Assembly: GCA_963766985.1 (NCBI GenBank)
Contig: CAVYCJ010000001.1
Coordinates: 45,634 to 109,633 of the forward strand
Source: an uncultured Acidobacteriota bacterium
GTDB lineage: Bacteria; Acidobacteriota; Terriglobia; Acidiferrales; UBA7541
Reading direction: 5' to 3'
DNA: 64,000 nt
Part shown: piece after piece, positions 1 to 37,941 of the stretch
Layout: the number at the start of each line of letters is the position of its first letter
How positions within the stretch are numbered: the first letter of the stretch is position 1
Position numbers and translations under genes: made by a program
Notes under the pieces: model-generated
What the model was told of the DNA's origin: nothing
The model's database searches: none
Seen by the model: only the letters and a program-made list of their open reading frames with translations

Positions 1-78
1 GTGTTGCCTTGCGGAACGATCGTCCGTTGCATTCCTGGCCGGCCTTGAACATCACAACTTTGCGATAATGGCGTCGAT

Positions 79-1482: not shown

Positions 1483-1527
1483 TCTGTGATAACGTCGCTG
1501 GCCGAGAATTCGAGCAGTCGAGAGCGG

Positions 1528-2844
1528 CTACGCTTTGGTCGAAGCTGATCGACGCGAGCGGAGGTAGGTAGCGTAGATCGCTACGGCTCCGACCATGGCG
1601 AAAATGGCGATCAACGTCCACGCGAGGTCGTAGTTGTGGCGAGCGTCGAATAAGCGGCCGACAAACCAGGGGCCAGCCCACTGTCCAACTGAATAACCCA
1701 TGATGATCAGCGCAAGAATTTTGCCGAGCGATGCGGTGCCGAAATTTTCTGAGACGACGAGCGGGATCAGCATGTAGTCGGCGCCCATCGAGAAGCCGAA
1801 GATTGCGGCGAACGCCCAGACGGCGAGCGTGGATTGCGGATGAGCGAGCAAGAGCACGGATGCGCCGATCAGGAAATAAAAAATCGCCATGATGAAGGAT
1901 TTTGAAAAACGATCGGCGATGTAGCCGACGACGACGCGGCCGCCAAGGCTAGCGGTCAGCAGGATGCTCAGGTAACGGGAGGCGACCGTCGCTGAGTATC
2001 CAGAATCTTTAAGAAACAAGATGAAATGCTGGATGACAGCGCCGATTGCTCCGATGGCGAGAGTTGAGCCGAGCAGAATGAGCCAGAAGGGCGCGGTTCG
2101 AATGGCTTGCGCTACTCCGGCAGGTGCAACGGCGGGAGCTGAGATTTTGTTTTCAAGTGATGACTCGCCGAATTGTTTTGGATCAATTCCGCGGTCGGCT
2201 GGTGTCGAGCGCGTGATCCAGAGGCCGGTGGGAATCAGCACAAGACCGATTGCCGTGCCGATGATTTCGAGAGCAGGCCGCCAACCGAGAGTGCGCGCGA
2301 GATAGTTCACCAGGATCGGCGCGACGACTCCGCCCAGGCCCAAGCCGAGATAGGCATAGCCCATCGCTTGACCGCGACGGCGTTCGAACCATCGGGCTAC
2401 CAAAACTTGATTCGCGATGGGACCGGCGAAGACGTAACCGATCACTTCTACGATGCAGAGGAGTTCGAATTGCCAGAACGCGGTGATGCGACTCATCAGA
2501 ATCAGTGAGCCGGATACGAGCGCGACGCCGGCTAAGATCACAGCTTTTGCGCCGACGCGATCGATCAAGGCGCCAGCGATGATTCCGAATGGCAAGCCGG
2601 CGAAGAGAAAGCCGAGGAGAAATCCCTGGGTGAGCTGGGCGCGAGTGAAGTGGAGGTCCTGGACGAAGTAGGGATAGAAGGCGGGGAAGCCGTAGAAGAT
2701 GATGCCAACGACGAGGAAGAGGTTCAGGAAAGCGGCGAAGACGATCCACCAGCCGTAGTAGGTTTCACCACTGGCGTTGGGCGTGGGATTGGGCGGCGGC
2801 GCGATCGAGCGGGCGGCATCGGTTGTGGCGGATGAGTGCGTCAC
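1528..2844 (-). CDS. MFS transporter
   Basis: 438-aa ORF with about 12 hydrophobic spans. It has an MFS loop motif (LIDRVGAK) and an ARWFERRRGQAMG-like loop. Confidence 0.8.
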   Translation of the reverse strand: MTHSSATTDAARSIAPPPNPTPNASGETYYGWWIVFAAFLNLFLVVGIIFYGFPAFYPYFVQDLHFTRAQLTQGFLLGFLFAGLPFGIIAGALIDRVGAKAVILAGVALVSGSLILMSRITAFWQFELLCIVEVIGYVFAGPIANQVLVARWFERRRGQAMGYAYLGLGLGGVVAPILVNYLARTLGWRPALEIIGTAIGLVLIPTGLWITRSTPADRGIDPKQFGESSLENKISAPAVAPAGVAQAIRTAPFWLILLGSTLAIGAIGAVIQHFILFLKDSGYSATVASRYLSILLTASLGGRVVVGYIADRFSKSFIMAIFYFLIGASVLLLAHPQSTLAVWAFAAIFGFSMGADYMLIPLVVSENFGTASLGKILALIIMGYSVGQWAGPWFVGRLFDARHNYDLAWTLIAIFAMVGAVAIYATYLRSRRSASTKA

Positions 2845-2879
2845 GGGCAGCGAAGCTTAACCTGAGGAGCGCCGCAATT

Positions 2880-3726
2880 TCATCCAAATTCCGGGCCGAG
2901 GATCGCGCAGAGGCATTCTGAGTTTCCGGGGAAGGCGTTTGGTCCGCGGTACATGCGGGTGAGGAGTCGGGCTGGAGAAAATCCGTATTCGCGCAGGAGT
3001 TCGGTGGCGATGAGATTGGATTTGAGTGCGTCGACGATGAGGGTTTCTCGCGGCGACCGCTGGAGAAATTCGGAGAGCAGGGATCTTGCAGTCTGATCGT
3101 CTTGCGCCATCCATGGGCCGAAGTGATCGGCAAAGAGTCCGTGGCGGCCGAATGCGTAGCCGTTTAACGCGCCGGCATTTCGAATTGACAGCGACAGTTC
3201 GGGGGCATGCTCGGCGAGGGAGGATAGCAACTTGCTGCGGTCGGCTCCGAAGATATTGCGATCGAATTCGAGGATTTGGCGTAGCTCCGCTGACGAAAGG
3301 CTCGCGCCGAGATTAGTCGCTTGCTCTGTCACGCTTCGCTTCAAGATCCAGCGATCGATTTCGTATTCGGTGACGAAACCGAGCTTTTCGTAGAGCGGTT
3401 TTCCGGCGGGCGTGGCGTCGAGCTTCAACGTAGGAATGCCGGATCCATCCAAATACTCGATGGCGTGTTGTAGAAGCGCGGTGCCGACGCCTCGTTTTCT
3501 GTAATCCGGATCGACGAGAACCATTCCAATCCAGGCGAATCGGCTTTCATAGGGAATTGTGGCGGAGGTTCCGACGATCTTTCCGTCATCTTCCATTACA
3601 AAGCAGCCGCTGGGGGCTGGAGTCGAGAAATCGGGTCCAATCGGCTTCGGTCTGATTCCAGCCCACGATCGTGTTCAGCCGAACGCCGCCAGGAATATCC
3701 CGCTTGGTCATTACTCGGAGTTGCAT
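2880..3726 (-). pseudogene. GNAT family N-acetyltransferase, frame interrupted (pseudogene or consensus error)
   Basis: ORFs 3586..3798 and 2880..3596 join into one GNAT: MQLRVMTKRDIPGGVRLNTIVGWNQTEADWTRFLDSSP | SGCFVMEDDGKIVGTSATIPY...VLVDPDYRKRGVGTALL (acetyl-CoA binding R-x-x-G-x-G). The frames meet in a C5 run on the coding strand (G5 at 3612..3616). Deleting one C restores the frame. Confidence 0.7.
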
Positions 3727-3832
3727 GGAACTTGAGCCTCTATTCGAACGCTCAGGATACTGGAATCCGAGCGACTCGTGATGAGGGTTTGAGTACAATC
3801 TTTCGAGCGCGAAATTTTCAAAGCAAGCCTAA

Positions 3833-4891
3833 ATGCCCGACCACCAGAGGCTGATGCAGAGCGAACTCAAGTCGATCCGCGACGAAACGCACCTCGAAGA
3901 ACTTCTGAGCGAACCCACCGAAAGCGTTGTTCGAACGATGGGCGAGCTGGAAGGCGACATTATTGTGCTCGGCGTCGCTGGGAAGATGGGGCCGACGCTC
4001 GCTCGAATGGCGAAGCGAGCGTCCGACGCGGCTGGGGTGAAGCGTCGCGTTATCGGCGCATCGCGATTTTCGTCGCCGGAACTCGAACGCCGACTCGCGG
4101 ATTGGGGAGTCGAGACGATTCGCTGCGATCTGCTGGACCGCGACGCGCTCGCGGCTCTTCCGTATGCCGCAAATGTCGTTTACATGGCAGGGATGAAATT
4201 TGGCTCGACCGGGCAGGAGTGGCGCACGTGGGCGATGAACGTTTTCTTGCCCGGACTCGTCGCGGAGCGTTATCGGTCCAGCCGAATCGCGGTTTTTTCC
4301 ACCGGGAATGTCTACGGACTTTGTTCGGTGTCACGAGGCGGCTCGCGAGAAGGGGACGAGTTAAACCCTGCCGGCGAATACGCGATGAGTTGTCTTGGCC
4401 GCGAACGCATATTCGAGCATTTCAGCCGGGCGAACGGAACGAAGATGACGATCTTGCGGTTGAACTATGCAAGCGAGATGCGTTACGGAGTGCTGCTCGA
4501 CATTGCGCAGAAGGTTTTCTCTGGCAAGCCTGTTTCGCTCTCGATGGGACATCTGAATACGATTTGGCAGAGAGACGCGTCGGCGATGAGCCTCGAATCG
4601 CTCGCACATGCCACGACGCCTCCCAATATCTTGAACATTACTGGGCCGGAGATTCTTAGCGTTCGAAAGTTAGCTGAGGAGTTCGGCGCAAGATTTGGCA
4701 AAGCGGTCACTCTTGAAGGCACAGAGTCGTGCGATGCGCTGCTGAACGACTCCAGCAAGGCCTTCGAACTTCTCGGCAAACCGCTAGTCGGCATCAACCA
4801 GATGCTCGATTGGATCGCGGATTGGGTTGCGCGAGGAGGATCTTCTCTGGCCAAGCCGACGCATTTCGAGGAGCGCGCTGGACGGTTTTAA
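3833..4891 (+). CDS. NAD-dependent epimerase/dehydratase family protein
   Basis: 352-aa ORF with an N-terminal Rossmann motif IIVLGVAGKMGPTLA and extended-SDR-like length. Confidence 0.65.
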   Translation: MPDHQRLMQSELKSIRDETHLEELLSEPTESVVRTMGELEGDIIVLGVAGKMGPTLARMAKRASDAAGVKRRVIGASRFSSPELERRLADWGVETIRCDLLDRDALAALPYAANVVYMAGMKFGSTGQEWRTWAMNVFLPGLVAERYRSSRIAVFSTGNVYGLCSVSRGGSREGDELNPAGEYAMSCLGRERIFEHFSRANGTKMTILRLNYASEMRYGVLLDIAQKVFSGKPVSLSMGHLNTIWQRDASAMSLESLAHATTPPNILNITGPEILSVRKLAEEFGARFGKAVTLEGTESCDALLNDSSKAFELLGKPLVGINQMLDWIADWVARGGSSLAKPTHFEERAGRF

Positions 4892-4915
4892 TTTCGCCTG
4901 AATTTCAACGACACG

Positions 4916-5983
4916 ATGCCGCACACAATCGACGCCAAAGTCCTGCAATCGATTCAGAAGGGAGTCGTAATTCCGGCGCATCCGCTCGCGCTCACATCAG
5001 AGCGGCGCCTGGACGAACGCCGCCAACGAGCGCTCTCGCGTTACTACGTTGCGGCGGGCGCAGGCGGACTTGCCGTCGGCGTGCACACGACGCAGTTTGC
5101 GATCCGGCAACCGAAGATTGGGCTGTTCCAGCCGGTGTTACGACTCGCCGCAGAAGAAATGGATCGCGCGGATGTCAGCCGGACGACACCGCTGGTTCGA
5201 ATCGGCGGTGTTTGCGGCGAGACAAATCAGGCGGTTGCCGAAGCCACGTTGCTCCGCGATCTCAGATACCACGCTGGACTCTTGAGTTTGGGCGCTGTCG
5301 CGGCGTGGGACGACGAACGCCTGCTCGCTCATTGCAAGGAAGTGGCTCAGGTACTTCCGTTGATTGGTTTTTATTTGCAACCGGCAGTGGGCGGCCGATT
5401 GCTTTCGTATTCGTTCTGGCGAAAATTCGCGGAAATCGAAAACGTTATTGCGATCAAGATTGCGCCGTTCAATCGTTATCAGACATTGGATGTTGTTCGA
5501 GCCGTGGCGGAATCGGGACGCGACATCGCGCTGTACACAGGAAACGACGACAACATCGTGCTGGATTTGCTTACGCCGTTTTCGTTTCAGGCCAAACCAC
5601 AGCAACAAACGCGCCGCATCGTTGGGGGACTGTTAGGTCATTGGGCTGTTTGGACGAAACGTGCAGTCGATCTTCTGGCCGAGTGCCACGCTCTCGTGGG
5701 CGACAAGGCTCCGATTCCACACAACATGTTAGAGAAGTCCGTGCAAGTCACCGACAGCAACGCGGCATTTTTCGACGCAGCCAACGGATTCGGCGGTTGC
5801 ATTGCAGGCTTGCATGAGGTTCTTCGGCGGCAAGGCCTGCTCGAAGGAATCTGGTGCCTCGACGAACACGAAACACTCAGCCCGGGCCAACGAGAAGAGA
5901 TCGACCGCGTCTATCGCGCGTATCCCGAGCTGAACGATGACGAATTTGTTCGCGGAGGCCGCGATGCCTGGTTGAAGCCTTGA
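4916..5983 (+). CDS. Dihydrodipicolinate synthase (DapA-like class I aldolase) family protein
   Basis: 355-aa ORF with TIM-barrel-like alternation and a candidate Schiff-base lysine in VIAIKIAPF. Family call is by resemblance only. Confidence 0.5.
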   Translation: MPHTIDAKVLQSIQKGVVIPAHPLALTSERRLDERRQRALSRYYVAAGAGGLAVGVHTTQFAIRQPKIGLFQPVLRLAAEEMDRADVSRTTPLVRIGGVCGETNQAVAEATLLRDLRYHAGLLSLGAVAAWDDERLLAHCKEVAQVLPLIGFYLQPAVGGRLLSYSFWRKFAEIENVIAIKIAPFNRYQTLDVVRAVAESGRDIALYTGNDDNIVLDLLTPFSFQAKPQQQTRRIVGGLLGHWAVWTKRAVDLLAECHALVGDKAPIPHNMLEKSVQVTDSNAAFFDAANGFGGCIAGLHEVLRRQGLLEGIWCLDEHETLSPGQREEIDRVYRAYPELNDDEFVRGGRDAWLKP

Positions 5984-6002
5984 CGAAATACTTTCGGTGC
6001 TA

Positions 6003-7328
6003 CTAGCTCTTGACGATTTCCGTTGAATATTTGGGAAGGACGAGCATCAATGCGGCTGCTACACCCAACGCAAGAGCGAGAACGGTGAGAAGCGAAGTGT
6101 ACGAACCGGTGACATCAAACGCGCGCCCCAGAATGACGGGGCCGGTGGCTCCGGCGGCTGCGTAGAACGTCCAGGTGAGGCCGTACAGCGTTGAGAAAGC
6201 GCGCAGACCGAAATAGCGGGTCAGCAAATACGGCGTGATCGCAGCTTCGCCACCCGCTCCAATTCCAATAAGCGCAGCGGCTGCCGCTCCGCCAACGAAA
6301 CTGCTCGCGCTCGCGAGCAGCAAGATCCCGCCGGCGGTGGCCAGATTGATGACAAACGCTACGCGCCCGCCAAAAAATCGGTCAAGCAACCAGCCGGTCA
6401 CAATGCGACCCAATATGCTCGTACCGCCGAGAATCGACGCGCAAAGGGCGGCATTTCCGGGGGTGATTCCCCGGTCTGTCAGCAAGGCCGAGAGATGCGT
6501 GATGGCTCCGTTCATGCTGATCGAACTCACGAACAGAACCGCAACAATGATCCAGAACGCAAACGACCGTGTCCCTTGTTGCCAGGTGAGTCCCGAGTGC
6601 GGAGTTTCCGTCACTTCCCTTGCTTGCGTTTTCGTCGTGCCTCGATCTCTGATATAGAGCCAGCTGAGGGGAAGACCGAGCAGCAACGCGGTAATGCCCA
6701 GCGTTAAATAGGCGGCACGCCAACCTGATCGGGTGACAACGGCCTGGGCGATGACCGGGAGAATCATCGCGCCGAGACCTGCTCCGACCATGACGAATGC
6801 CAGTGCTACTCCCAAGCGGCGGTTGAACCACGTCGAAATCGAGCGCGCATATGCCAAATGAGCAGCGCCATTGCCGACCACGCCGATGACGAAGCACGTT
6901 AGGTAGAACTGCCAGATTCCCGGGCGCAAGAGAGCGAAAGATGCGATGCCGCAACCGAACACGGTCATGGACGGCAAGATGATGTAACGAGGGCCAAAGC
7001 GGTCGATCAAGCGACCGATCAGCGGGGATGACATCCCCACCGTCATCGCGGCGATCGCAAAGCCGAGAGAAACGGATTCGCGATTCCAGCCAAATTGTGC
7101 GCCGAGCGGCTTTACGAAGACCGTAAACGTGTAGACGAAGAGCGAGCCGAATCCGCCCATCACGCCGAGGCATGCTGCAAGCGCAACGCGCCAGCCGAAA
7201 TATCCCGCGTGAGATTCGTCGAGTTCAATCGCTTTATCGGTTCTGGGTTGTGTGTCTGTGATCATGCTTCGGCAAGCCGTGCCAACCGCGTCCCACACCC
7301 GTACAAGGTGGCCACTTTGCTGGGCCAA
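6003..7328 (-). CDS. MFS transporter
   Basis: 441-aa ORF with 12 hydrophobic spans and LIGRLIDRFGPR loop motifs. The true start may be the internal ATG at 7265 (MITDTQPR). Confidence 0.8.
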   Translation of the reverse strand: MAQQSGHLVRVWDAVGTACRSMITDTQPRTDKAIELDESHAGYFGWRVALAACLGVMGGFGSLFVYTFTVFVKPLGAQFGWNRESVSLGFAIAAMTVGMSSPLIGRLIDRFGPRYIILPSMTVFGCGIASFALLRPGIWQFYLTCFVIGVVGNGAAHLAYARSISTWFNRRLGVALAFVMVGAGLGAMILPVIAQAVVTRSGWRAAYLTLGITALLLGLPLSWLYIRDRGTTKTQAREVTETPHSGLTWQQGTRSFAFWIIVAVLFVSSISMNGAITHLSALLTDRGITPGNAALCASILGGTSILGRIVTGWLLDRFFGGRVAFVINLATAGGILLLASASSFVGGAAAAALIGIGAGGEAAITPYLLTRYFGLRAFSTLYGLTWTFYAAAGATGPVILGRAFDVTGSYTSLLTVLALALGVAAALMLVLPKYSTEIVKS

Positions 7329-7557
7329 GAAGGCGAATCACAATAATCCGAAAGCACTACCGGGCCAAGAACAACTCTTGGGAAAGCGGCGAAAATTCGC
7401 CTGCTAAATATTCCAACCACCCGCCGCGGGTCGGCATCCAAGCCGCATGTCCGTGATATTCTCAATGCCGTCGGAAGCGGTTGCGACTCTCGGGAGCGAA
7501 CCGAACTCGAGAGCCCAATCACTCCGGTCCGCGCATCGGGCTTCGGAAGCATCCCCC

Positions 7558-22943: not shown

Positions 22944-22981
22944 GGGTGCCGCACCCTCAGCCTTCAGAGGGTGCGGGTTTT
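22944..22981 (+). repeat. Family-2 repeat (GGGTGCCGCACCCTCAGCCTTCAGAGGGTGCGGGTTTT)
   Basis: Contains hairpin CACCCTC/GAGGGTG. A near-identical inverted copy lies at 42716..42752. Confidence 0.8.
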
Positions 22982-23071
22982 GACTTCCGCAACCGCACCA
23001 CCGATTTTGTCCGCCGCGCCAACCTGCCTTACGATATCCCCGCCCGGACCATCACAAACGGAGCCCATTCC

Positions 23072-24032
23072 ATGACCTCGCCCAGCGCCAACGAGCCAGC
23101 CCCCGCCCCCCAACCCGTCCTCGCTCCCCTCACCAGCTCCGCCATCTTCCTCGTCGCCTCCATCAAGCCCGACGCCGCAAGCTACTCCACCGTCCGCGAC
23201 CTCGTCGCCGACCTCCCCGGCATCTACCGCGCCGTCGACTTCCGCCGCATCGAAGGCGGCCTCTCCTGCGTCGTCTCTTTCGGTTCCAACGCCTGGGACA
23301 AACTCTTCCCCAACAATCCCCGCCCCGCCGAACTCCACTCCTTCAAAGAACTTCGCGCCGGCGACCGCCACGCTCCCGTCCACTCCCGCCGACATCCTCT
23401 TCCATCTCCGCGCCAAGCGCATGGACCTATGCTTCGAGCTCGTCTCCCAAATCATGTCGCGCATCGGCACCGCCCTCGACTCCGTCGACGAAACCCACGG
23501 CTTCCGCTACTTCGACGATCGCGATCTCCTCGGCTTCGTGGACGGAACCGAAAATCCCCGCGGCCTTGCCGCGCTCAACGCGGCCCTCATCACCGAAGCC
23601 GAAGATCCGCAATTCGCCGCCGGAAGCTACGTGATCATCCAAAAATATCTCCACGACATGTCGAAATGGAACGCGCTTACGACCGAGCAGCAAGAACACG
23701 TCATCGGCCGACAAAAGCTTTCTGATATCGAACTCAGCGACGCCGCAAAGCCGACCAACGCCCACAGCGCCCTGACCACCATCGACGAAAACGGCAAAGA
23801 ACTGAAAATCCTTCGCGACAACATGCCCTTCGGCAAACCCGGCCAAGGAGAGTTCGGCACCTACTTCATCGGCTATAGCCGCACCCCGCGCACTACCGAA
23901 CAAATGCTCGAAAACATGTTCATCGGCCGTCCTCCCGGCAATTACGACCGCCTCCTCGACTTCAGCCGCGCCGTAACCGGCAGCCTCTTCTTCGCCCCCT
24001 CCGCCACCTTCCTGGATTCCCTCGGCGACTGA
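23072..24032 (+). pseudogene. Dyp-type (B-class, YfeX/EfeB-like) peroxidase, frame interrupted
   Basis: N-terminal half in ORF 22946..23725 (from ATG 23072: MTSPSANE...VVSFGSNAWDKLF...LHSFKELRAGDRHAPV). C-terminal half in ORF 23421..24032 (..TPADILFHLRAKRMDLCFELVSQIM...GFVDGTENP...FFAPS). The frames switch by +1 between about 23378 and 23390. Confidence 0.8.
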
Positions 24033-24264: not shown

Positions 24265-25303
24265 CTACCGGAACCCGTTTGGCCCCGCGTTCAACCCAGC
24301 AGGGAAGAACACTCCCACTGCCGGCGTCACAACCTTTCCTGCGGCAACCGCGCCTCCGCCCGTCACGATGTTCAACACCTGCGTCGTATTCCGCGCAAAC
24401 GCGATCGCATTCGTCGCATCCGCGTCCGTAATACGCGTCGAAGTCGCCGCCGCGTTCAACGTCACCTGAAACGTAGCCAGCCCGAAATCATCTGGATTCG
24501 TGTCATACGGACCGGGCGCCGCGCCCAACAATCCCGCCTGCGACTAACGTCGCCCGCAGCGTCGAAATGTTGTTCGTGAATCCCGCGATCGTCGCACCCG
24601 TCGGATCAATGTCATTGATCGTCGTGCGAATCAGTCCGGCGTGATACGCCTCCACCGCCAGAATCCCCGCCGCCACCTTCAGATTCGCCGCCACCGTCAG
24701 CAACGAAGCCGCTCCGTGATACGCCGTCACACCGACATCCTCAAACACGTATGCGCCGACCAGAAAAGTATCGTCGCTCGTGTACGGGCTGAACGTCGAC
24801 CCATTCGGGATAGCCGCCGCCGTCGCCAGCGTTTGAAACGACGTCCCCAGGTTGATCGCCGGTTGTGCCACCGCCGCCGAGCCCAGCGCGCTGAGCAGCA
24901 ACTGCACGTGCTTGCCTTCTTCGATCGCCGTCTCGATCGCGTACGACGCAACTTCCGTCGTGGCGAAGGGAACCATGCTGCCGCCAGTCACCGTTCCCGG
25001 CGTCCCGACCGTGCCCGACAGCTTGATCGTCAGCGCTCCGGCCGCCGTCGTCATCGCATTCGCGACATCGATCGTCGTCCCAAACGCTGCCAAATAATAA
25101 AAATTCGCTTCCAGATACTCGAGGTTCAACGCGAAATTCAAAATATCCGCGTCCGTAAACGTCGCCGCCTTTGCCGCAGGAGCCAGCGCGCCCGTCAGCG
25201 CACCACCCACCGCGCCTGCCAGCGACGTCAGCCCGACGGTCAACATCTTCCGCCGGCTTTTTACAATCACATCATCGAGAAACTGCGTCTCTTGATTCGC
25301 CAT
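24265..25303 (-). pseudogene. Tat-signal ferritin-like domain protein, frame interrupted
   Basis: ORF 24503..25303 (SRRKMLTVGL...; NFALNLEYLEANFYYLAAFG) and ORF 24265..24531 together align along the whole intact paralogue at 25403..26437. For example, ..ADATNAIAFARNTTQVLNIVTGG matches ..DPTTAVGFARTPNQVHHIVYGS. A +1 break lies between 24529 and 24543. Confidence 0.7.
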
Positions 25304-25402
25304 AATTTTCCCTCACTCTAGAGCTTTGCTCTTAGCTGCATGGTTTGTTTCCGTGCGCGTTGGCCGCGCTAAAGTTTCCGCTTTTTGTATTCGAGTAGAG
25401 TT

Positions 25403-26437
25403 CTACGCGGTCGTCGTGGCGAAAATGCTGTTCGTCCCGCTCGGGAAAAATCCGCCCGAGCTCACTCCCACCGTGGCCGAGCCATAGACGATGTGATGAA
25501 CCTGATTCGGAGTGCGCGCGAACCCGACCGCCGTCGTCGGATCAGCCGCCACAATCGCGCTAGGCGTCGTGATGTTCGCCGGCAGAGTCAGCAGCGTCTC
25601 CACTGAACCCGTCGCCGATGGCGCCGCCGTGTTGCCCACCGTCAGCATCGCCCGCAGCGCTTCCACTTTGTTCGCCGCTGGCAAATACGGATACGCCGCC
25701 GTCGATCCCGCAGCGATCGCGCGACCCGTCAACGCCGTCCGCACATACCCCGCGTGATACGCCTCGACCGCCAGAATCCCCGCCGCCGCAGTCAAAAGCC
25801 CAGCCGCAACGCCCGCTGCACTGATCAATCCCGCCGCGCCGGAATACGCAGTCACTCCGACATCTTCAAAAATAAACGCCCCGACCAGAAAATCATCGAA
25901 GCTCGCAAACGGATTGAAAGCCGGCGCTGACGCTGTCGTAATTCCCGCCGCCGTAGCCAGCGGACCAAAAAACGACAAATCGATATTCGGCATCGGTACC
26001 GCGTTCGCGCCAAGAGCCGCACGCAAAAATCGCACGTGCGCCCGCTCTTCAAACGCAATCTCATTGATGATGTCCTGCTGCGCTGCCGTCAGTCCCGCAA
26101 CCTGCGCCGCGTTGCCCTTCGTCACCGTGCCGACCGTCGTGAAGCTCGAGCTCGCACCCGCCGAAATGTCCGCGTCCGTCAGCCCCGTTCCCGTCGCCGC
26201 ATACAAGTAGTACTGCGCCTCCAGATATTCCAGGTTCAGCGCATAGTTGAGAACGTCGTTGTCCGTCGGTGTCGGAGCAACCGGTGTGGGCGTCGGTGTC
26301 GGCGTCGGATTTGACGACGATCCTCCTCCGCATCCTGTGATCGAAATTGTTGCCGCAGCTCCCGCGACCGCTCCCGCTCCGACGACAAATTTTCGTCGCG
26401 ACACGGCTCGGTCCACGAGCTCTTTCAATTTTTCCAT
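25403..26437 (-). CDS. Tat-signal ferritin-like domain protein (possible lipoprotein)
   Basis: ATG 26437 follows GGGAGGAAAA. SRRKFVVGAGAVAGAAATISITGCGG combines twin-arginine and lipobox-like motifs. It also has a PTPTPTPTP linker and NYALNLEYLEAQYYLYA, IAFEERAHVRFL ferritin-like motifs. Confidence 0.75.
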   Translation of the reverse strand: MEKLKELVDRAVSRRKFVVGAGAVAGAAATISITGCGGGSSSNPTPTPTPTPVAPTPTDNDVLNYALNLEYLEAQYYLYAATGTGLTDADISAGASSSFTTVGTVTKGNAAQVAGLTAAQQDIINEIAFEERAHVRFLRAALGANAVPMPNIDLSFFGPLATAAGITTASAPAFNPFASFDDFLVGAFIFEDVGVTAYSGAAGLISAAGVAAGLLTAAAGILAVEAYHAGYVRTALTGRAIAAGSTAAYPYLPAANKVEALRAMLTVGNTAAPSATGSVETLLTLPANITTPSAIVAADPTTAVGFARTPNQVHHIVYGSATVGVSSGGFFPSGTNSIFATTTA

Positions 26438-26748
26438 GGGTTTTCCTCCCAATTCGAGATTTGGGGCAAAGTGCGCCGGTGAGCGCTTGCCGGGAGGAAG
26501 AATCCACCGGTAATTCTTATTTCAGTGAGAATCCACCACTGGAATGGACTACGCCGTAGGGTATGAATCGGATGGAATCTGCGGAAATTTTTGAGAAACC
26601 TGGTATGCGCCCCTAGACGGGACGCAATTCTGAGAGCAATTCGTCAGTGCGGATGCATTATTCCGCAACTTGTAGAGGACGCGTCCTTGCTCTTTGCCAC
26701 AAACAATCTCACCTGATCACCACTTATCGTGACGGTTGATAGAGTTTT

Positions 26749-26781: not shown

Positions 26782-28188
26782 CTACTCCTCGGCCGCGATT
26801 TGGTATTGCTCTAACTTGCCGTCCGGCATTTCATAGGTCCACACGATCAGTTTCTCTTTCGCAAATTTGGCGGAGTACAGCCGCATCTTCATGCCTCCCC
26901 GCAATTCCTGCTTTACCTGGAAAAATTCCTCGGCGTTTCCCAGTGGTCCCAACCCACCAGCGAAATCCTTCAACGCCTGCTCGCTGAAATAGAAATTGGC
27001 ATTGTCCGTGAAGAGAGAACGATCGATCGTCCCATGCTGCAGCCCTTCGAAAATTTTTCGTGCTTGAGCAAGCTTCTCCGGAGTCGCCGGATCAGCGCTC
27101 GCGAGCAGCAAAGGCGCGATGCCGTTTGCAATCGTCCCCGAAACCTCCGAGGCATCCTGATTGGTGAGCACAACTACCGCAACGCGTTCGTCCGGAAAGA
27201 CCATATTTTCCGACGTGAAGCCCGAAACCTCGCCACTGTGCGACACCGATCGATGTCCAAAGTCCGAACGTACCTCCACGCCGAGCCCATAATTCGTTCC
27301 CAATCCGTTCTTCAGCAGGACTTCCGTTTCGAACGCTAAATAGGAAGACGGTTTCATCAATTTCTGATTGATGATCGAAATGTCCCACTTCGCCAGGTCT
27401 TCCGCTGTCATCGCGAGTTCACCGGCAGCAAAGAGCCAGCCGAAACCTTCCTTAGGCGCCAATCGCAGCGGTCCGAGAGCGTAGCGCAGATAACCGATCG
27501 GATCGGTGTCGCCGAGTTTTGCCTCGTCGATGTCGGCGACGCTTTTCATGTGGAGTGGCGCGAATATCTTCTGCTGAAGAAATTGCAGCAACGGTTGGCC
27601 GCTGGCTTTCTCAATGATTAGCCCGGCGATCACATAGTTCGTATTGCTGTACTGCCATTTCGTTCCGGGCTCAAAATCCAGCGGTTTGCGCGCCCAATCG
27701 TCCAGAATCTTCCGTGCGTTGGTCGGCTTCAACATCGAGGGCATCACATAATCTTGCGGCCAGTAGTCTTGATACCCGGACGTGTGCGAAAGAAGCTGGC
27801 GAATCGTCACTTCGTTGGCTCGGGTTAGGTCGGGAAGAAATTTGCCGACCTTATCGTCGAGCGAAAGCTTTCCTTGCTCCTGCAAAAGCAGAATGGCCGC
27901 GGCCGTGAACTGCTTGCTGTTCGAGCCGATGCTGTAACGCATTTCGGCCGCCGCCGGTACCGCGGGATCAAGCCGCGCATTTCCGTACGCGTGCAGATAA
28001 ACAATCTGCCCATCCTTTACCACTGCGACCGATGCGCTGGGCACGCCAGTCTTGGCGAGCGCCTCCGTGGCTACCTTGTCGATCTTTTGCTGCATGTCCG
28101 GCGGTACCTGGCTCTGCGCATTCGCATTAGTGAAGCCGGCCGCCAGAAGCAACATCAGAATGTGGAATCGTTTCATGACACCTTCCAT
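26782..28188 (-). CDS. Serine hydrolase, beta-lactamase/PBP4* fold (class C-like)
   Basis: Signal peptide MKRFHILMLLLAAGFTNANA. S-x-x-K motif in YSIGSNSKQFTAAAILLL. A Y-x-N-like YSNTNY follows. Confidence 0.85.
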   Translation of the reverse strand: MEGVMKRFHILMLLLAAGFTNANAQSQVPPDMQQKIDKVATEALAKTGVPSASVAVVKDGQIVYLHAYGNARLDPAVPAAAEMRYSIGSNSKQFTAAAILLLQEQGKLSLDDKVGKFLPDLTRANEVTIRQLLSHTSGYQDYWPQDYVMPSMLKPTNARKILDDWARKPLDFEPGTKWQYSNTNYVIAGLIIEKASGQPLLQFLQQKIFAPLHMKSVADIDEAKLGDTDPIGYLRYALGPLRLAPKEGFGWLFAAGELAMTAEDLAKWDISIINQKLMKPSSYLAFETEVLLKNGLGTNYGLGVEVRSDFGHRSVSHSGEVSGFTSENMVFPDERVAVVVLTNQDASEVSGTIANGIAPLLLASADPATPEKLAQARKIFEGLQHGTIDRSLFTDNANFYFSEQALKDFAGGLGPLGNAEEFFQVKQELRGGMKMRLYSAKFAKEKLIVWTYEMPDGKLEQYQIAAEE

Positions 28189-28991: not shown

Positions 28992-29168
28992 ATGGATAGC
29001 CAAAACCCAGGCGAAGCAAATCCCCTAAAAGAAGAGTCGGTGATCGCCAACGCAGAAGCCGCTCCGAAGGAACTCCCCGACGACGACCTGAAATCGGTGA
29101 CCGGCGGCCTCGGTTCGAAGCCCAGCGAAGCGCTGGGATCCGCCGCGGTTTGCATCAGTCAGCTGTAA
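28992..29168 (+). CDS. Small peptide A (58 aa) with double-glycine-type leader; candidate precursor or pheromone peptide
   Basis: Absent from the ORF track because it is under 60 aa. GGAGG (28981..28985) lies 6 nt before ATG 28992. My translation: MDSQNPGEANPLKEESVIANAEAAPKELPDDDLKSVTGG|LGSKPSEALGSAAVCISQL, stop TAA 29166..29168. Confidence 0.55.
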   Translation: MDSQNPGEANPLKEESVIANAEAAPKELPDDDLKSVTGGLGSKPSEALGSAAVCISQL

Positions 29169-29235: not shown

Positions 29236-31326
29236 GTGTCCGACAACTCCCGACATGAGTGGGTCGTAGGTCCGTTTCATCCGGACAACGAACTCCCCTC
29301 GCGCACCCCGCCCGCCGAACACCTCGAAATCAACGCGCATCGCAACCTGCGCGGCCCCTACACTTCGGCAATCGGAATCGTTCTTCGGCTTCTGGAACAT
29401 CCATCGATCGCCAAAATCGAAGATCTCTTCCGCCGGCGGCAACGGACGCTTCTACTCGTCTGTCCGGAATTAGCGAATTCCCATCCGGTCTCGCCCGAAG
29501 TTCGCAAATGGCTCACCTTATCTGGGGAAGGGAATCCGTCCTCACGTACGCTTAAGCTGGCTCACGGCCTGACCGACTTCATCCTCGACTGCGCTGCGCA
29601 TCTGAACTCTCAAGCGCCTCTCGTTCTATCGATCGATAATGTAGACTTCGCCGATCCTCTGGATCAGGAATTCTTGGCCGTTCTGCTTCGCCGCGCTCAT
29701 CCCGATCAACTCAGGATAAGAATTCGAACGTCATCGGACCGCCTCAGCGACGACCAACTTCGTTCGGCCGTACAGAAATTTGCATCCATAAGACATCTGC
29801 AATCGTCCCAGCAGGATTCCCTCTCTTCCAAGCAATATTCGCCCCCACCGAACATCTCCGCCTCGCGAAGAAATACGTCTGGTCGGACTGCACATCCAAC
29901 GACCCATCCCTCACGTCTTCCTACGCCGCCATAAACGCTGACGACCGCCGACTGCTGCATCAAGAACGACTCGCCGAACTTCAGTCACTCGGCCAAACGT
30001 CTTCTTCGCTAGGGGCTATCCCTTTTCACTGTGAACAGGCTGGCGACGATCCGTTCCCACTTCTCGCCGCCTCGGTGCATTGCATGCACGTCGCATTCTA
30101 CGAGGCAGCTCTGGACTGGGCAGTCCGCGGCCGCCGGATGCTCGCTTCCTCGGACCAAAGCAAACTGAGCAACGACCTCAGCCGCAACATTCTCTTCTCG
30201 TTGCTGTTACTGGAGCGTCTCGACGAGTTAGAGACGGTTTGCGCGCGGAATCTTGAGCGGAGCAACGATCCCGCCCTGCTCGCCCACACTACCTACGCCA
30301 AAGCGATCCTCGCGGCCCGCCTCTACGAACCATCAAGGCGCGACTATGCCGCCGCTCGAACCTGGATCGAGAAGTCCTTGGCCTTCACCGAAATGCTCCC
30401 AACGTCCGAGACTCGTGCGGTAAACATCGCGTTCTTGCGCAATACGATGGCTTTGGTGGAAATGCGCACGCGGCAACCTGGACACCGCCCTCCAACTTCT
30501 GTCCGATTCTCTTCAGTTCATGGCCACCGAAGCTCCGGCCAAATTCGAATCGGAATGCGCGATCCTTCTTCACAATCGTGCGCGGCTTCACACCAAACGC
30601 AACGAGCTGCCGAAAGCCATTGACGACCTCACGACTCTCCTCCGCCACCAGCCAGGCAACTACGAAAGCTATTTCGACCGCGGCGTTCTGCGGCAGCGAT
30701 TGGGCCATACGGAGGAAGCAATCCGGGACTTCGACGCCGCCATCGAATGGAGTCCACCCGATTCCGACGCCCACTTCAATCGCGCCCAGGCCTTGCTTTC
30801 ACTCGGCCGGGACGACCAAGCGCTGGCAGATTACACGCGAGTGCTCGAACTCCACCCGGCTCACATCGAAGCCCTGACCGATCGCGCTCGCCTCCTTTAC
30901 GCGCAAGGGAAACTAAACGCCGCTCGCTCCGACGTAAACGCCGCGCTTCTTCTATCGCCGTCGAGCGCGAGACTCTTGTGCATCTCCGGATTGCTGGATC
31001 TGAAAAGTCAGAATCTTGAACAAGCTTTCGAGCTCTTCACCAAGGCGATGGAAGCCGACTCTTCGCTCCCCGATGCTTGGGCCAACCGGGCAACCGTCCT
31101 TTTCAAGCAGGGAAAGTTCGAACAGGCGGGTCTCGACCTCAGTCGGGCACTTTCGCTCCGCGAGGATTCCGAGACCTTCTACAACCGCGGTCGATGTTTC
31201 GAGATGCAGAAGAAATGGTCCCAGGCGGCCGCCGACTATTCGCGCGCTCTCCAGTTAGTCAGGGGCGATGACAGTCATATCCGACGCCATTTGGCTGTGT
31301 GCCGGCAAGCGGAGATAGTTCGCTAA
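29236..31326 (+). pseudogene. Large (~696 aa) protein: P-loop-less STAND/AAA_16-like N-terminal region plus TPR array; two frame breaks
   Basis: Three ORFs (29236..29934, 30075..30623, 30520..31326) join. The first join, ..SSKQYSPP|TEHLRLAKKYVWSDC.., needs one C added to the C5 run at 29842..29846. The second, ..ALVEMRT|GNLDTALQLLSDSLQFMATEAP.., needs 1 nt skipped at about 30468..30471. The C-terminal half carries at least 6 TPR units (e.g. YFDRGVLRQRLGHTEEAIRDFDAAIEWSP). LVLSIDNVDFADPLDQEFLAVLLRR resembles a Walker-B/AAA_16 segment, but there is no GxxxxGK[ST]. Confidence 0.65.
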
Positions 31327-31368: not shown

Positions 31369-32511
31369 TCACGCATTGACGATCGGAAGGAGATCATTTT
31401 CGTTCGAACATCCCTGCAAGATTCCAAAATCGACCATCTTGCGCACTAGGTTCATATCCAGCCGGGTGTTCTCTTTCGTAAGAATCGCTTCGAGCGCTTC
31501 TTCCGTGGGCCTGCCATCGAAATACCGGAGAGCTCGCGCAAGCTTGTCTGGCATTTGCAACGGGTCATATCCACTGTAACCGACAATTCGGAAGCCGCCG
31601 TCCCCAACGCCCGTGAAATGGATTCGGCCCAGACGCAGTCTCTCGGGGAGGGCTGTCGATTCCAGGTTTTTGTACGCATCCGACAGCATTTGCGCGAGAA
31701 TTCGCACTCGCGGGCCTGATACCTGTTCGACCTGTTCCCATGTCAACGGGTCCACAAGCCGCGCACACGCACGATAGAATTCCGCTTCGCGCCCGACCCA
31801 ATCGCCCCAAAGCTTGCGGTACAAACCCCAGTTCATCTCCCCGCCTAGCTCCGAGACGTCGGGCGATGACCGTGCCGACATGGCAAAGACTTCCGCCGAA
31901 CCTGCCTTCAGTTCCTCCATGCACCACAAGCCGAGCTCACATTCGACAATCTGGAGAAGTTTGTCGGCCACCTTCCAGAAGTTGTGCCCTGTACCGCCAC
32001 GAACATGTTTGCAGAACCAGGTAGAACATACCGCTGGCCGGTGTTTCCAGATGCCACAGCCACCATTGGAGTCGAGAAATTGGCAGCGCAGTTCCGGAGC
32101 GCGCCCGAACACGTTCGGGGTGCTGTGGTACAACAAGTCGAAGACGGATCCAGGCCCAGCCCAACGCGGAGAAATCGCTACTCTTCGCGCGATACGTCGC
32201 TCAAGCTCTTCCCGCCCCGCTTGAATCGAGGGGTCCTCTTCCATCAGGATGCGCCCAGCCAGAAAGTTTGGAATGTGTGGTTGGAACGCACAACATTTCG
32301 TCGCGGGATGAAAAAATACGCCTTCCGCAGGCCCGTCGGGAGACGGGAGCATCGCGCAATTTTGGCAGGTAGCTCGAGTTTCGGCGGGAATAGGGCCGCC
32401 AGTCACGGTGCGGAGCCAGGGCGCGTAAAGAGGGGGGAGGGCAGCTTCGAGCATCATATTCGGTTCATATTTGCGGGAGAGATGATTCCACCGCTGGCGA
32501 AGCGAATACAA
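31369..32511 (-). CDS. YkgJ/FliB-type (CxxC...CC) cysteine-cluster protein with C-terminal PqqD-like (RRE-like) domain
   Basis: 380 aa. Cysteines C49-x2-C52, C73-C74 and C143-x8-C152-x9-C162-x4-C167 (CQFLDSNGGCGIWKHRPAVCSTWFC) match the Zn/Fe-chelating CxxCxxCC family pattern. Residues ~291-366 (RLRLGRIHFT..GFRIVGY..DPLQMPDKLARALRYFDGRPTEEALEAILTKENTRLDMNLVRKMVDFGILQ) have the 3-strand plus 3-helix pattern of PqqD. Confidence 0.55.
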   Translation of the reverse strand: MYSLRQRWNHLSRKYEPNMMLEAALPPLYAPWLRTVTGGPIPAETRATCQNCAMLPSPDGPAEGVFFHPATKCCAFQPHIPNFLAGRILMEEDPSIQAGREELERRIARRVAISPRWAGPGSVFDLLYHSTPNVFGRAPELRCQFLDSNGGCGIWKHRPAVCSTWFCKHVRGGTGHNFWKVADKLLQIVECELGLWCMEELKAGSAEVFAMSARSSPDVSELGGEMNWGLYRKLWGDWVGREAEFYRACARLVDPLTWEQVEQVSGPRVRILAQMLSDAYKNLESTALPERLRLGRIHFTGVGDGGFRIVGYSGYDPLQMPDKLARALRYFDGRPTEEALEAILTKENTRLDMNLVRKMVDFGILQGCSNENDLLPIVNA

Positions 32512-32577
32512 ATCACCGGGCGGGCCGCTGTTGACTGCGGCCCGCCCAGGTGTTGATATCCGGTATTTTCGGCTGTC

Positions 32578-32793
32578 TTAGGAAGGCAGTCCGTCTTCGA
32601 GCAACGAGCCGTCGAGGGTGTCGCCTTGAGCGATCGACCCGCCAGTCGTTGTTTTTGGAACTGAGGTGAGCGCCTTTTGTTTCACGACTACGGAGATGCC
32701 TTGCCCGCCCTGAACTCCACTGAGCTGATCTTCGTTCAACTCGGTGACTTCACCTGCGTGTTCCGAACCGGGCTTGATGGTTTCGTCAGACAT
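32578..32793 (-). CDS. Small peptide B (71 aa) with double-glycine-type leader; candidate precursor peptide
   Basis: MSDETIKPGSEHAGEVTELNEDQLSGVQGG|QGISVVVKQKALTSVPKTTTGGSIAQGDTLDGSLLEDGLPS. It lies 66 nt upstream of the Cys-cluster gene on the same strand. A purine-rich GAGAAAGAGAG precedes the ATG. Confidence 0.6.
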   Translation of the reverse strand: MSDETIKPGSEHAGEVTELNEDQLSGVQGGQGISVVVKQKALTSVPKTTTGGSIAQGDTLDGSLLEDGLPS

Positions 32794-32908
32794 ATTTTTC
32801 TCTCTTTCTCACACCGCCTCCGTCGAGACGGCGATCGTTACCGCTAAGTCCGAATTTTCCGGCATCGTGGGGACGCCCGACCGCGGGCACATTCCGGAAT
32901 CGGCCCGG

Positions 32909-32937
32909 AATATAGTCAATTGCCCTGTTTATGTAAA
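32909..32937 (-). promoter_or_regulatory. Sigma-70-like promoter for the peptide B / Cys-cluster operon
   Basis: On the minus strand: TTTACA (32937..32932), a 17-nt spacer, then TATATT (32914..32909). This is about 115 nt upstream of ATG 32793. Confidence 0.45.
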
Positions 32938-33098
32938 GACGTGTTTCTTAATAGCCGTCTCGGCGAAGCCCTCCGGCCGAACCTTGCCCGCGCATACACT
33001 GCCGTAAGGTTTCCCCCGTACTCGACCGATTGAGCCTCCGGCCTACGGCTTCCGCGACCACCAAAATAGACCTATCCGGTCAAATCGTCTGTCGGAAC

Positions 33099-36230: not shown

Positions 36231-37848
36231 CTAGACGCCGGTGATTTCGCCGGCGTCATCTGTATCGATGTTCAGTGCGCGCGATTGTTTTGGCAGCCCC
36301 GGCATCAAGACCATGTTGCCGGAAATGATGACCACGAATTTTGCTCCCGCCGAAAGCGCAGCATCGGAAATGTGCAAGGTCCAACCGGTCGGGGCGCCGG
36401 GGAGTTTCGGATCGTCGGTGAAACTGTACTGCGTCTTCGCAATGCATACTGGCAACTTCGCGTAGCCCCACTGTGAAAATCGTTCAAGCTTCGATTCGGC
36501 CTGATCTGTAAAACTCACATTCGCCGCGCCGTAAATTTTCGTGGCAACCTTCCGGATTTTTTCCACCAAGCGAATCCGACAAGTCGTACGCCGCCGTCAC
36601 CACCGGCTCCGGATTTTGCGCCATCACTTCGACCACTAATTCCGCAAGATCTTTCGCGCCAGGCCCGCCCTTTGTGAACGCCTCCGACATCGCCGTCCGC
36701 GTTCCATGCTCTGCTGCATAATCCGCCAAATATTTCAGATCGGCGTCGGTGTCTTGCGGAAAACGATTCACCGCAACGATCGTCGGCAATCCGTACGACT
36801 TCATGTTGTCGATGTGCTTGCCCAGATTGGGCAATCCTTTGTCGAGATCGCCGCCGCCTTGCGTGCGGATGCTCTGCACCGTCGTAACAACAACCGCGAC
36901 AGCGGGCTTCGTTCCGGATTGCTGCATCACGATATCGAGGAATTTTTCGGCGCCGAGATCTGCGGCGAATCCCGCTTCGTTCACGACGTAGTCGGCTAGA
37001 CGCAGCGCCATTTTCTGCGAGACGACGCTGCTGGTGCCGTGGGCAATATTTGCGAACGGACCTGTGTGGACAAACGCAGGCGTTCCATCGGAGGTTTGCG
37101 CCAGATTGGGCAGGATCGCTTCGGAGAGCAGCGCCATCATGCCTCCGACTGCATGGAGATCTCCGGCACGCACAGGCTTTCCTTCGCGTGTCATGCCGAT
37201 GACGATGGATTCCAGTCGATGGCGCAGGTCTTTGCGATTTTCGGCGAGCGCGAGAATCGCCATGATTTCGCTGGCGGCCGTAATGACGAATGCCGTCTTG
37301 CGATTCGCGCCGTCGCGCTTGCCGCCGACATCGATTTGAATACGACGCAGCGCGCGATCGTTCATGTCCATGGCGCGCGGCCAGGTGATCTGATTGGGAT
37401 CGAGATTGAGTTCGTTGCCGTGGAACAAATGCGCGTCGATCAACGCCGCAAGAAGATTGTTGGCGCTGGAAATTGCGTGGAAGTCACCGTGGAAATGCAG
37501 ATTGATTTTCGCGGCAGGCTCGATTTGCGAGAGGCCTCCGCCCGCTGCGCCGCCTTTCATACCGAAGACGGGCCCAAGAGACGGCTCGCGCGACGTTATC
37601 ACTGCGCGTTTACCGATGTGCGCGAGTCCTTGCGTCAATCCGATCGACGTTACCGTTTTGCCTTCGCCGGAAACAGTCGGCGTCGTCGCGGTGACGAGAA
37701 TCATTCTTCCGCGCGGCTTTGCGAACGCTGGATCGTTCAGAAGTTCGAGGCGAATCTTTGCGCCGTACGAACTCACTTGTTCGACGTATTGATCGGGGAT
37801 TTCGAGCTTTTTCGCGACGTCCTTAATCGGGAGGAGTGTTTTGGCCAT
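36231..37848 (-). pseudogene. fhs: Formate--tetrahydrofolate ligase, frame interrupted near the 3' end
   Basis: From ATG 37848: MAKTLLPIKDVAKKLEIPDQYVE...TPTVSGEGKTVTSIGL...; the C-terminus continues in ORF 36231..36569 (VEKIRKVATKIYGAANVSFT...PGLPK). Junction: ..AAYDLSDSL|VEKIRKV. One extra nt lies near 36563..36567. Confidence 0.85.
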
Positions 37849-37941
37849 GGGGAATAGATGTGTAGGATGGGCCTCCGGTAGCAATGTAGCACAGCGATGG
37901 AGATGCTTCGATTGCGAGAGCGCCGAAGCCTGGAGTGACTG

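Follow-up and report, generated by a model that had tools for sequence, protein, structure and literature searches.

A large unannotated family of cysteine-rich proteins with a predicted RRE-like domain, encoded beside double-glycine leader peptide genes in Acidobacteriota and other phyla

What does a protein do that joins a cluster of invariant cysteines to a predicted leader-binding domain, and does it act on the small peptide encoded immediately upstream of it? The question arises from a gene on the minus strand of a 64,000-nucleotide stretch of DNA, hereafter the window, from an uncultured Acidobacteriota bacterium (GTDB lineage Terriglobia; Acidiferrales; UBA7541; GenBank assembly GCA_963766985.1, contig CAVYCJ010000001.1, positions 45,634 to 109,633). 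On balance we favour the answer that the protein is a leader-guided, metal- or Fe-S-dependent tailoring enzyme of a new system of the RiPP type (ribosomally synthesised and post-translationally modified peptides) whose substrates carry double-glycine (GG) leaders. This reading is supported by context, as genes for GG-leader peptides adjoin the gene both in the window and in most relatives, and by a C-terminal domain with the predicted fold of a RiPP recognition element (RRE).

The open reading frame (ORF) at 31369-32511 on the minus strand translates to 380 amino acids (aa) and a stop and aligns with its homologs end to end; residue numbers below refer to this product. It contains 12 cysteines at positions 49, 52, 73, 74, 143, 152, 162, 167, 191, 197, 249 and 368, and the translation bears out the layout C49-x2-C52, C73-C74, C143-x8-C152-x9-C162-x4-C167 given in a preliminary description of the locus made from the sequence alone, with the segments quoted there at the places given (CQFLDSNGGCGIWKHRPAVCSTWFC from residue 143, DKLARALRYFDG from 322, PTEEALEAILTK from 335 and LDMNLVRKMVDFGIL from 351). 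The eight cysteines of this layout and C197 are invariant in an alignment of the target with 33 homologs that are 41-87% identical to it (mean column identity 55%), so that the layout is not a matter of chance. Other invariant residues in the same 34-member alignment include W32, E44, W165, K168, R171, G172, W179, W235, W238, W258, Y312, D316, D361 and F362. The listed start codon, a TTG at 32511, is probably wrong and as judged from the sequence the true start is most likely the ATG at 32457, which would give a gene of 362 aa (32457..31369). The TTG is doubtful because nearly all homologs are 359-362 aa long and begin at the equivalent of M19/M20 (MMLEAALPP), because the homolog in the related locus L001 has a stop codon two codons 5' of its own ATG, and because the TTG sits within the T-rich tail of an intergenic hairpin. 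The gene and its predicted domains are laid out as follows.

31369..32457, minus strand: target gene, 362 aa from the likely ATG; the ORF as listed extends to TTG 32511
32002..32454, minus strand: N-terminal cysteine-cluster domain, residues 20-170, with eight invariant cysteines
31657..32001, minus strand: all-helical middle domain, residues 171-285, with K168/R171/G172 at its start followed by W179, C197, W235, W238 and W258
31408..31656, minus strand: C-terminal RRE (PqqD-like) fold, residues 286-368, a beta-sheet then three helices according to the structural model and Foldseek

The same three parts recur throughout a large family. A word-indexed protein search gave 709 matches, and the top 120 of these were nearly all 315-390 aa long (three were truncated, at 269-301 aa) with a query coverage of 71-100%, were labelled only as 'hypothetical' or 'Fe-S-cluster containing' and had no precomputed Pfam domain. 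An exhaustive profile search of 1.84 billion representatives returned 1,974 clusters (50% identity) at E<=1e-3 and 1,096 at E<=1e-30, with the top 150 clusters being nearly all full-length single-stretch matches mostly of 315-430 aa (P0218 is a 242-aa fragment). Among the GTDB species representatives 243 loci encode a relative, and the 80 of these that were fetched within Acidobacteriota fall in Terriglobia, Bryobacterales, Blastocatellia, Vicinamibacteria and Thermoanaerobaculia and beyond it in Planctomycetota, Chloroflexota, Methylomirabilota, Myxococcota, Gemmatimonadota, Bacteroidota and Alphaproteobacteria. The three-part architecture is a fixed trait of a large unannotated family and not a one-off fusion, and the earlier wording 'unusual domain fusion' was therefore misleading. 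Searches of the target against Pfam, NCBIfam, PADLOC and PDB sequences gave nothing above threshold. No model in NCBIfam (June 2026) covers the family, the target having no match at E<=1 and the 34 members no relevant one, and literature searches found no description of it.

A full-length AlphaFold2 model made with the family alignment (predicted local distance difference test score, pLDDT, 83; predicted template modelling score, pTM, 0.83) places helices over residues 172-284, which agrees with the helical middle proposed in the preliminary description, and then a beta-sheet at 291-321 and helices at 322-330, 336-347 and 353-361. The cysteine-bearing loops are the least confident part of the model (pLDDT 61-77), as is to be expected where metal sites are modelled without metal. 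Foldseek comparison of this model with the PDB gave no credible match to the N-terminal or middle domain, the middle domain also having no match in the PDB sequence search, and matched the C-terminal part to TbiB1, LynD, SuiB and a lasso B1 protein. When residues 283-380 were modelled in isolation (pLDDT 74.6) the top 14 PDB matches were all leader-binding proteins of RiPP pathways, namely LynD, TruD, McbB, TigE, TbiB1, PbtF-RRE, MccB, SuiB and PqqD, with a probability of 0.5-0.97, a query-normalised template modelling score of 0.45-0.58 and E-values of 0.03-0.8; MadB and CteB stood lower in the list. That these matches are so uniform, and that DNA-binding winged-helix proteins do not figure among them although the PDB holds far more of those, makes it convincing to assign the modelled C-terminal domain, with its three-stranded sheet and three helices, to an RRE/PqqD-like fold. 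The PqqD-like domain proposed earlier is in this way upheld by fold, on which the assignment rests because sequence methods give no PqqD signal, and a profile search of PDB sequences with the C-terminal domain recovered no solved RRE. Neither the profile searches nor the structure searches assigned the protein to a characterised family or its C-terminal domain to a fold other than that of an RRE.

The RRE has a winged-helix-like structure that is believed to go back to DNA-binding regulators (PMC7470986). Such an ancestry could also suit a metal- or redox-sensing winged-helix transcription factor of the adjacent peptide operon that binds DNA through its C-terminal domain, and the conserved adjacency to peptide genes would fit a dedicated regulator in loci that are rich in TPR/AAA, kinase, cyclase and cyclic nucleotide (cNMP)-binding proteins. 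We nevertheless regard a regulator as distinctly unlikely, since DNA-binding winged-helix proteins are missing from the top Foldseek matches although they are far commoner in the PDB, no helix-turn-helix family is matched in Pfam, and the gene lies downstream of the precursor gene in what is presumably one transcription unit with it, a position that tailoring-enzyme genes usually have.

The tailoring-enzyme reading also draws on the surroundings of the gene. In the window the minus strand carries in order a promoter-like site, the gene for a peptide that we call peptide A, a hairpin and the target gene.

32909..32937, minus strand: candidate sigma-70-like promoter, TTTACA-17-TATATT, with 10/12 consensus matches, 5' of the peptide A gene
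32578..32793, minus strand: peptide A, a precursor of 71 aa whose double-glycine leader (…ELNEDQLSGVQGG) is followed by a core of 41 aa ending in GGSIAQGDTLDGSLLEDGLPS
32516..32549, minus strand: intergenic stem-loop of 13 base pairs (12 of them G-C) with a T-rich tail, terminator-like, between the peptide A and target genes

Peptide A gives weak matches to the Bacteriocin_IIc GG-leader model and to a lanthipeptide-leader model, and its gene ends 121 nucleotides 5' of the likely target start codon. Homologs of peptide A with a nearly invariant core tail lie directly 5' of the target homolog in the loci L001 and L005 and are found also in L017. The homolog of the target in L005, its closest relative, is 86% identical to it in protein sequence, and a 1.57-kb block that spans the promoter, peptide A and the enzyme gene (31375-32946 in the window, 9556-11128 in L005) is 85% identical in nucleotide sequence between flanks that are unrelated. 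Peptide A and the enzyme gene look like a two-gene cassette that is the minimal conserved unit. The promoter candidate is a consensus match only, and shuffles of the region yield 1.4 such sites. The intergenic RNA has a folding energy of -54.6 kcal/mol against -33.6 kcal/mol for shuffles (z = -6.2), a less perfect hairpin stands at the equivalent place in L005, and we consider the element a candidate for a partial terminator or attenuator.

We studied the loci of 80 of the 243 relatives, the neighbourhood counts being made on 77-82 loci. An untrained regular expression found small GG-leader ORFs on the strand of the gene and no more than 1.2 kb 5' of it in 22 of 77 loci, compared with 2.6% of other small ORFs. 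A 12-column position-specific scoring matrix (PSSM) found 119 GG-leader peptides in 47 of 82 non-redundant loci, a count that is somewhat circular because the matrix was trained on leaders of the same loci; its control is not circular, with 2 of 2,321 scorable shuffled ORFs exceeding the threshold. In about 42 loci such a peptide lies no more than 300 nucleotides from the gene, and the homologs commonly have 3-7 precursors arrayed near them. About 11 more loci have an adjacent peptide of another class, with a hydrophobic or twin-arginine (Tat)-like N-terminus (SRRGLLKGAL…), a '[QH]P.GG' motif (mostly IVQPNGG) and a Lys-rich tail. Peptides of the '[QH]P.GG' type lie directly 5' of the homolog in L023, L026, L033, L036, L045, L057 and L066 (also L046, L048 and L070). 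In a neighbour-joining tree of the enzyme the three leader classes (acidic GG, Lys-rich KGG and QPNGG) fall into contiguous blocks, a pattern that is suggestive of co-diversification of enzyme and peptide and is confounded by taxonomy.

Approximately 35-43% of loci show no adjacent peptide in the regular-expression and PSSM scans. A shortfall of this size is what speaks for the protein being a housekeeping Fe-S or zinc protein whose adjacency to peptide genes is coincidental, but we consider this very improbable given that the adjacency is seen repeatedly, in many phyla and with three leader classes, that the pair of peptide and gene moves as a cassette and that the protein has an RRE-like fold.

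On clustering all of the neighbour proteins from the approximately 80 loci the sole recurrent partner was a C39-peptidase ABC exporter, which was present with HlyD-like adaptors at 20 loci, and no other modifying enzyme was conserved nearby in this clustering. The neighbours in L001 include matches to NHLM_micro_ABC1, ABC2 and HlyD above curated cutoffs together with a cyc_nuc_ocin protein, the precursor in L006 has an NHLP-type leader and those of L006 and L007 are NHLP-like. The export module lies 3' of the target homolog in L001 and L005; in the window a TPR/AAA gene convergent with the target stands there in its stead, along with a second peptide gene.

As to the chemistry that such an enzyme might perform, the preliminary description likened the N-terminal half to YkgJ and FliB, and this likeness, which stays below threshold, is to one half of the cysteine motif. 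The second-half motif C…C-x-I-[YW]-x-x-RP-x-x-C is present together with eight conserved cysteines, of which C143, C152, C162 and C167 are those of the second half and are invariant. Against PF03692, however, the target scores 20.6 bits (E 7e-4), below the gathering score of 23, with only profile positions 41-68 being matched; 17 of the 34 family members match PF03692 at E<1 and none of them scores above the target. An hhalign comparison with a YkgJ alignment gave a probability of 12.8% (E 0.0022) and aligned C143..C162 with C58…C71…C81 of YkgJ, that is with the second cysteine half only, the YkgJ alignment being narrow (at least 63% identity) and this comparison a weak test. The first motif is split in the target into CxxC-x20-CC, which is invariant in the family, and so replaces the contiguous CxxCxxCC. 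From its sequence the N-terminal domain may be called PF03692-like, with membership in PF03692 unproven.

The resemblance to the PF03692/UPF0153 proteins (YkgJ and YcgN, with FliB similar) consists of eight conserved cysteines in a 4+4 arrangement and the shared second half C-x-[FL]-L…G-x-C-x-I-[WY]-x-x-R-P-x-x-C in proteins that are likewise cytoplasmic. They differ in the first half, which reads CxxC-x20-CC in the target, C7xxC10xxC13C14 in YkgJ and CX4CX3CC in FliB, and beyond the extent of YkgJ (109 aa) the target has a ninth invariant cysteine, a 115-residue Trp-rich helical domain and the predicted C-terminal RRE. To our knowledge FliB, an enzyme, is the sole member of this wider group with a PF03692-like cysteine domain to have been studied and characterised. 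It is a flagellin lysine N-methylase with eight conserved cysteines in all, and its N-terminal cysteine motif holds a [4Fe-4S] cluster that is needed for the S-adenosylmethionine (SAM)-dependent modification of its protein substrate before the latter is exported (PMC8598068).

A more specific form of the tailoring-enzyme reading would therefore have the target as a FliB-like, [4Fe-4S]- and SAM-dependent lysine N-methyltransferase that its RRE directs to lysines of the peptide. Besides the biochemistry of FliB, the second-half motif common to the target and PF03692/YkgJ is in favour of this, as is the 4+4 arrangement that recalls FliB's eight cysteines, and the substrates would, like flagellin, be modified in the cytoplasm before export. 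The cores favour lysine over arginine, at 9.8% and 3.6% where the long ORFs of these loci have 2.7% and 9.7%, and lysine is present in 88 of the 93 cores. The leaders are richer still in lysine (18.9%) and the peptide genes are lower in GC than their loci, however, which reduces the enrichment to a weak hint, and five cores have no lysine. With the FliB model of NCBIfam unmatched at E<=1 in all 34 members, and the low hhalign probability given above, we hold this specific chemistry to be unlikely. Two other chemistries were rejected. Cysteine-based crosslinks of the lanthionine, sactionine or ranthipeptide type do not serve as a general chemistry, as cysteine occurs in only 8 of 93 cores. Radical SAM chemistry finds no CX3CX2C motif in the target (the cysteine spacings are x2, x20, x0, x8, x9 and x4) and no Radical_SAM or SPASM match in Pfam.

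If the target is a tailoring enzyme it would work in the cytoplasm, and in the window its substrate would be the 71-aa peptide encoded immediately upstream. Precursor and enzyme would be co-transcribed from one promoter, with the hairpin between them passing more precursor than enzyme message. The C-terminal domain, to go by its fold, would dock the leader around the conserved L-x-x-D/K-L-x-x-V-x-G-G, while the N-terminal domain, with its eight or nine invariant cysteines, would bind one or two metal centres. If the distantly similar FliB/PF03692 proteins are a guide, the likeliest centre may be [4Fe-4S]. The cysteine domain and the Trp-rich helical middle would then together modify the core peptide, and as a biochemical precedent for this the related superfamily offers, as far as we know, SAM-dependent lysine N-methylation alone. 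In relatives, cleavage after the GG and export of the peptide would fall to a C39-peptidase ABC exporter of the NHLP type, accompanied by a second ABC subunit and an HlyD-like adaptor, families that were assigned by sequence, and because the export module is absent from the window, export there would need a transporter encoded elsewhere.

The same evidence would also suit a non-catalytic leader binder such as a chaperone, an export adaptor or an immunity or quality-control factor, which would keep GG-leader peptides in the cytoplasm or pass them on to the exporter, with the cysteine clusters serving as structural zinc sites. The chief point in its favour is that the RRE fold and the tight linkage to diverse cores that share no conserved residue fit recognition of the leader only; in addition PF03692 is annotated as 'zinc- or iron-chelating' and a catalytic motif was not identified in the target. 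Such a role is nonetheless improbable in our view, above all because the N-terminal and middle regions are more conserved than the RRE and their invariant residues (nine cysteines and many Trp, Lys, Arg and Glu) are like those of an active site. Stand-alone RRE proteins have a length of about 90 aa, and a conserved extension of 270 residues suggests more than docking, and the characterised relative of the cysteine domain is an enzyme.

Several observations weigh against the tailoring-enzyme reading. The similarity to PF03692 is below threshold and the FliB model is matched by none of the 34 members. The Foldseek E-values for the C-terminal domain are individually modest (0.03-0.8), and PqqD (PF05402) was undetected by sequence at E<=10 in the full proteins or in nine isolated C-terminal domains. 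The charge of the leader shows no significant anticorrelation with that of the C-terminal domain (rho -0.24, p 0.12), and the middle domain correlates in the opposite way. Core length varies from 4 to more than 40 residues and the peptide classes have no conserved core residue in common, a hypervariability that is awkward for a site-specific enzyme, and the lysine content of the cores is exceeded by that of the leaders. On the genomic side there is the fraction of loci in which the scans find no adjacent peptide, the partial circularity of the PSSM locus count, and the fact that all 80 of the relatives fetched are metagenome-assembled genomes. No C39 exporter was found anywhere in the 64-kb window, the large ORFs that were checked for one being MacB-like, AcrB, an M1 peptidase and a histidine kinase. 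With these points counted we still favour a leader-guided tailoring enzyme. A wider proposal, which we put forward tentatively, is that the family may be the signature enzyme of an undescribed RiPP class, widespread among bacteria of soils and sediments (Acidobacteriota, Chloroflexota, Methylomirabilota, Planctomycetota, Myxococcota and others), that uses an RRE-guided, non-radical-SAM, FliB-related Fe-S domain for a novel modification, for example lysine methylation, of hypervariable Lys-rich substrates with GG leaders.

The cores themselves show some further resemblances. Many of them, in L004, L010, L011, L014, L027, L037, L041, L052 and L081, read A-x-D-x-F-[LA]-K-I-[DG]-[GD]-I-K-G-E-S… and recall the N-terminal strand of Hcp, the tube protein of the type VI secretion system, with one of them aligning to positions 1-23 of PF05638 at E 0.056. 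Other cores end in the manner of a terminal beta-strand (…LSLNYSKILTEYK and …GWDIKANIKA), and the cores with LIGLLLPAVQKVRE presumably resemble the N-terminal helix of a prepilin.

The logic of the system, with its leader peptide, RRE-bearing enzyme and GG-cleaving exporter, is a known one and it is the catalytic module that differs. In comparison with established RRE domains (PqqD, TbiB1, LynD/TruD, McbB, MccB, SuiB, TigE and PbtF) the target has the same predicted sheet-then-three-helix fold, similarly fused to a catalytic-looking module and encoded beside precursors, but it lacks detectable sequence similarity to PF05402 or to solved RREs, and its RRE lies C-terminal to a cysteine-cluster module of a kind not known to occur with an RRE. 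At the level of the whole system the closest match is to the NHLP/Nif11 'NHLM' systems (TIGR03793 leaders, TIGR03794/03796/03797 for export, and TIGR03896). In L001 and L005 the complete export set adjoins the gene, and both kinds of system share GG cleavage motifs and precursor arrays whose cores are hypervariable. Tailoring in NHLP/Nif11 systems is carried out by LanM, cyclodehydratases, radical SAM enzymes, halogenases and acyltransferases, whereas here the only conserved partner is the target family. Short GG leaders of an acidic or Lys-rich kind, and not NHLP leaders, make up most of those associated with the family, and the window locus has no exporter. The radical SAM-RRE fusions (SuiB, CteB, TigE and PqqE with PqqD) likewise pair a Cys-rich module of the Fe-S type, which in the target is putative, with an RRE and deal with leader-bearing peptides. 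The target differs from them in having no CX3CX2C motif, TIM barrel or SPASM match and in its reversed domain order with the RRE at the C-terminus. We know of no RiPP pathway with a PF03692-like cysteine domain and a Trp-rich helical domain.

On the opposite strand of the window, beyond the 3' end of the target gene, lie a second peptide gene and a large regulator-like gene.

28992..29168, plus strand: peptide B, a 58-aa second GG-leader peptide (…LPDDDLKSVTGG) with a core ending in CISQL, 2.2 kb from the target
29236..31326, plus strand: AAA_16/TPR gene, STAND-type regulator-like, 3' of peptide B and convergent with the target; split into ORFs 29236-29934, 30075-30623 and 30520-31326

Peptide B gives a weak bacteriocin_sig match and a PSSM score of 29.8. 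The end of its core is CaaX-like, its homolog in L001 (16357-16521) likewise ends in CISQL, and a large TPR gene stands immediately 3' of the peptide gene in the window as well as in L001. The AAA_16/TPR gene has a change of frame near 30470 relative to its homolog in L017. Elsewhere in the window a formate-tetrahydrofolate ligase (36231-37884, minus strand) is divided between two ORFs, with the break at Pfam profile position 445, and the N- and C-terminal domains of a DyP peroxidase (22946-24032, plus strand) are encoded by ORFs that overlap in different frames. At least three frameshifted genes in 64 kb suggest assembly indel errors and not decay of the locus or pseudogenes. Beside a gene of the beta-lactamase family (26782-28188) two Ferritin_2 (PF13668) proteins are encoded in tandem (24503-26452, minus strand), and their N-termini are Tat-like or lipoprotein-like. 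The GC skew is steadily negative from 10 to 36 kb and strongly positive from 38 to 48 kb with the cumulative-skew minimum near 36 kb, and the switch at about 36-38 kb could be related to replication or merely reflect a change in gene orientation. Ahead of the locus in L001, the region 1-7405 has genes for a Ser/Thr kinase-TPR protein of 1,677 aa and for an FHA-GAF-guanylate cyclase; the locus itself encodes a cNMP-binding protein. By analogy these neighbours suggest that export of the peptide may be under cyclic-nucleotide control, for which the kinase- and cyclase-associated peptide systems of Haft are reportedly a parallel.

If the target family does consist of tailoring enzymes it would represent a new catalytic scaffold, built on a PF03692-like cysteine-cluster domain, for ribosomal peptide biosynthesis. 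It would also provide a genome-mining handle on thousands of peptide loci in uncultured soil phyla, loci that current tools do not flag because both enzyme and RRE are invisible to Pfam, NCBIfam and sequence-based RRE searches. The 71-aa peptide and the 362-aa enzyme of the window would then make a tractable two-gene system for the chemistry of Fe-S domains of the PF03692 type, which work on FliB has left open.

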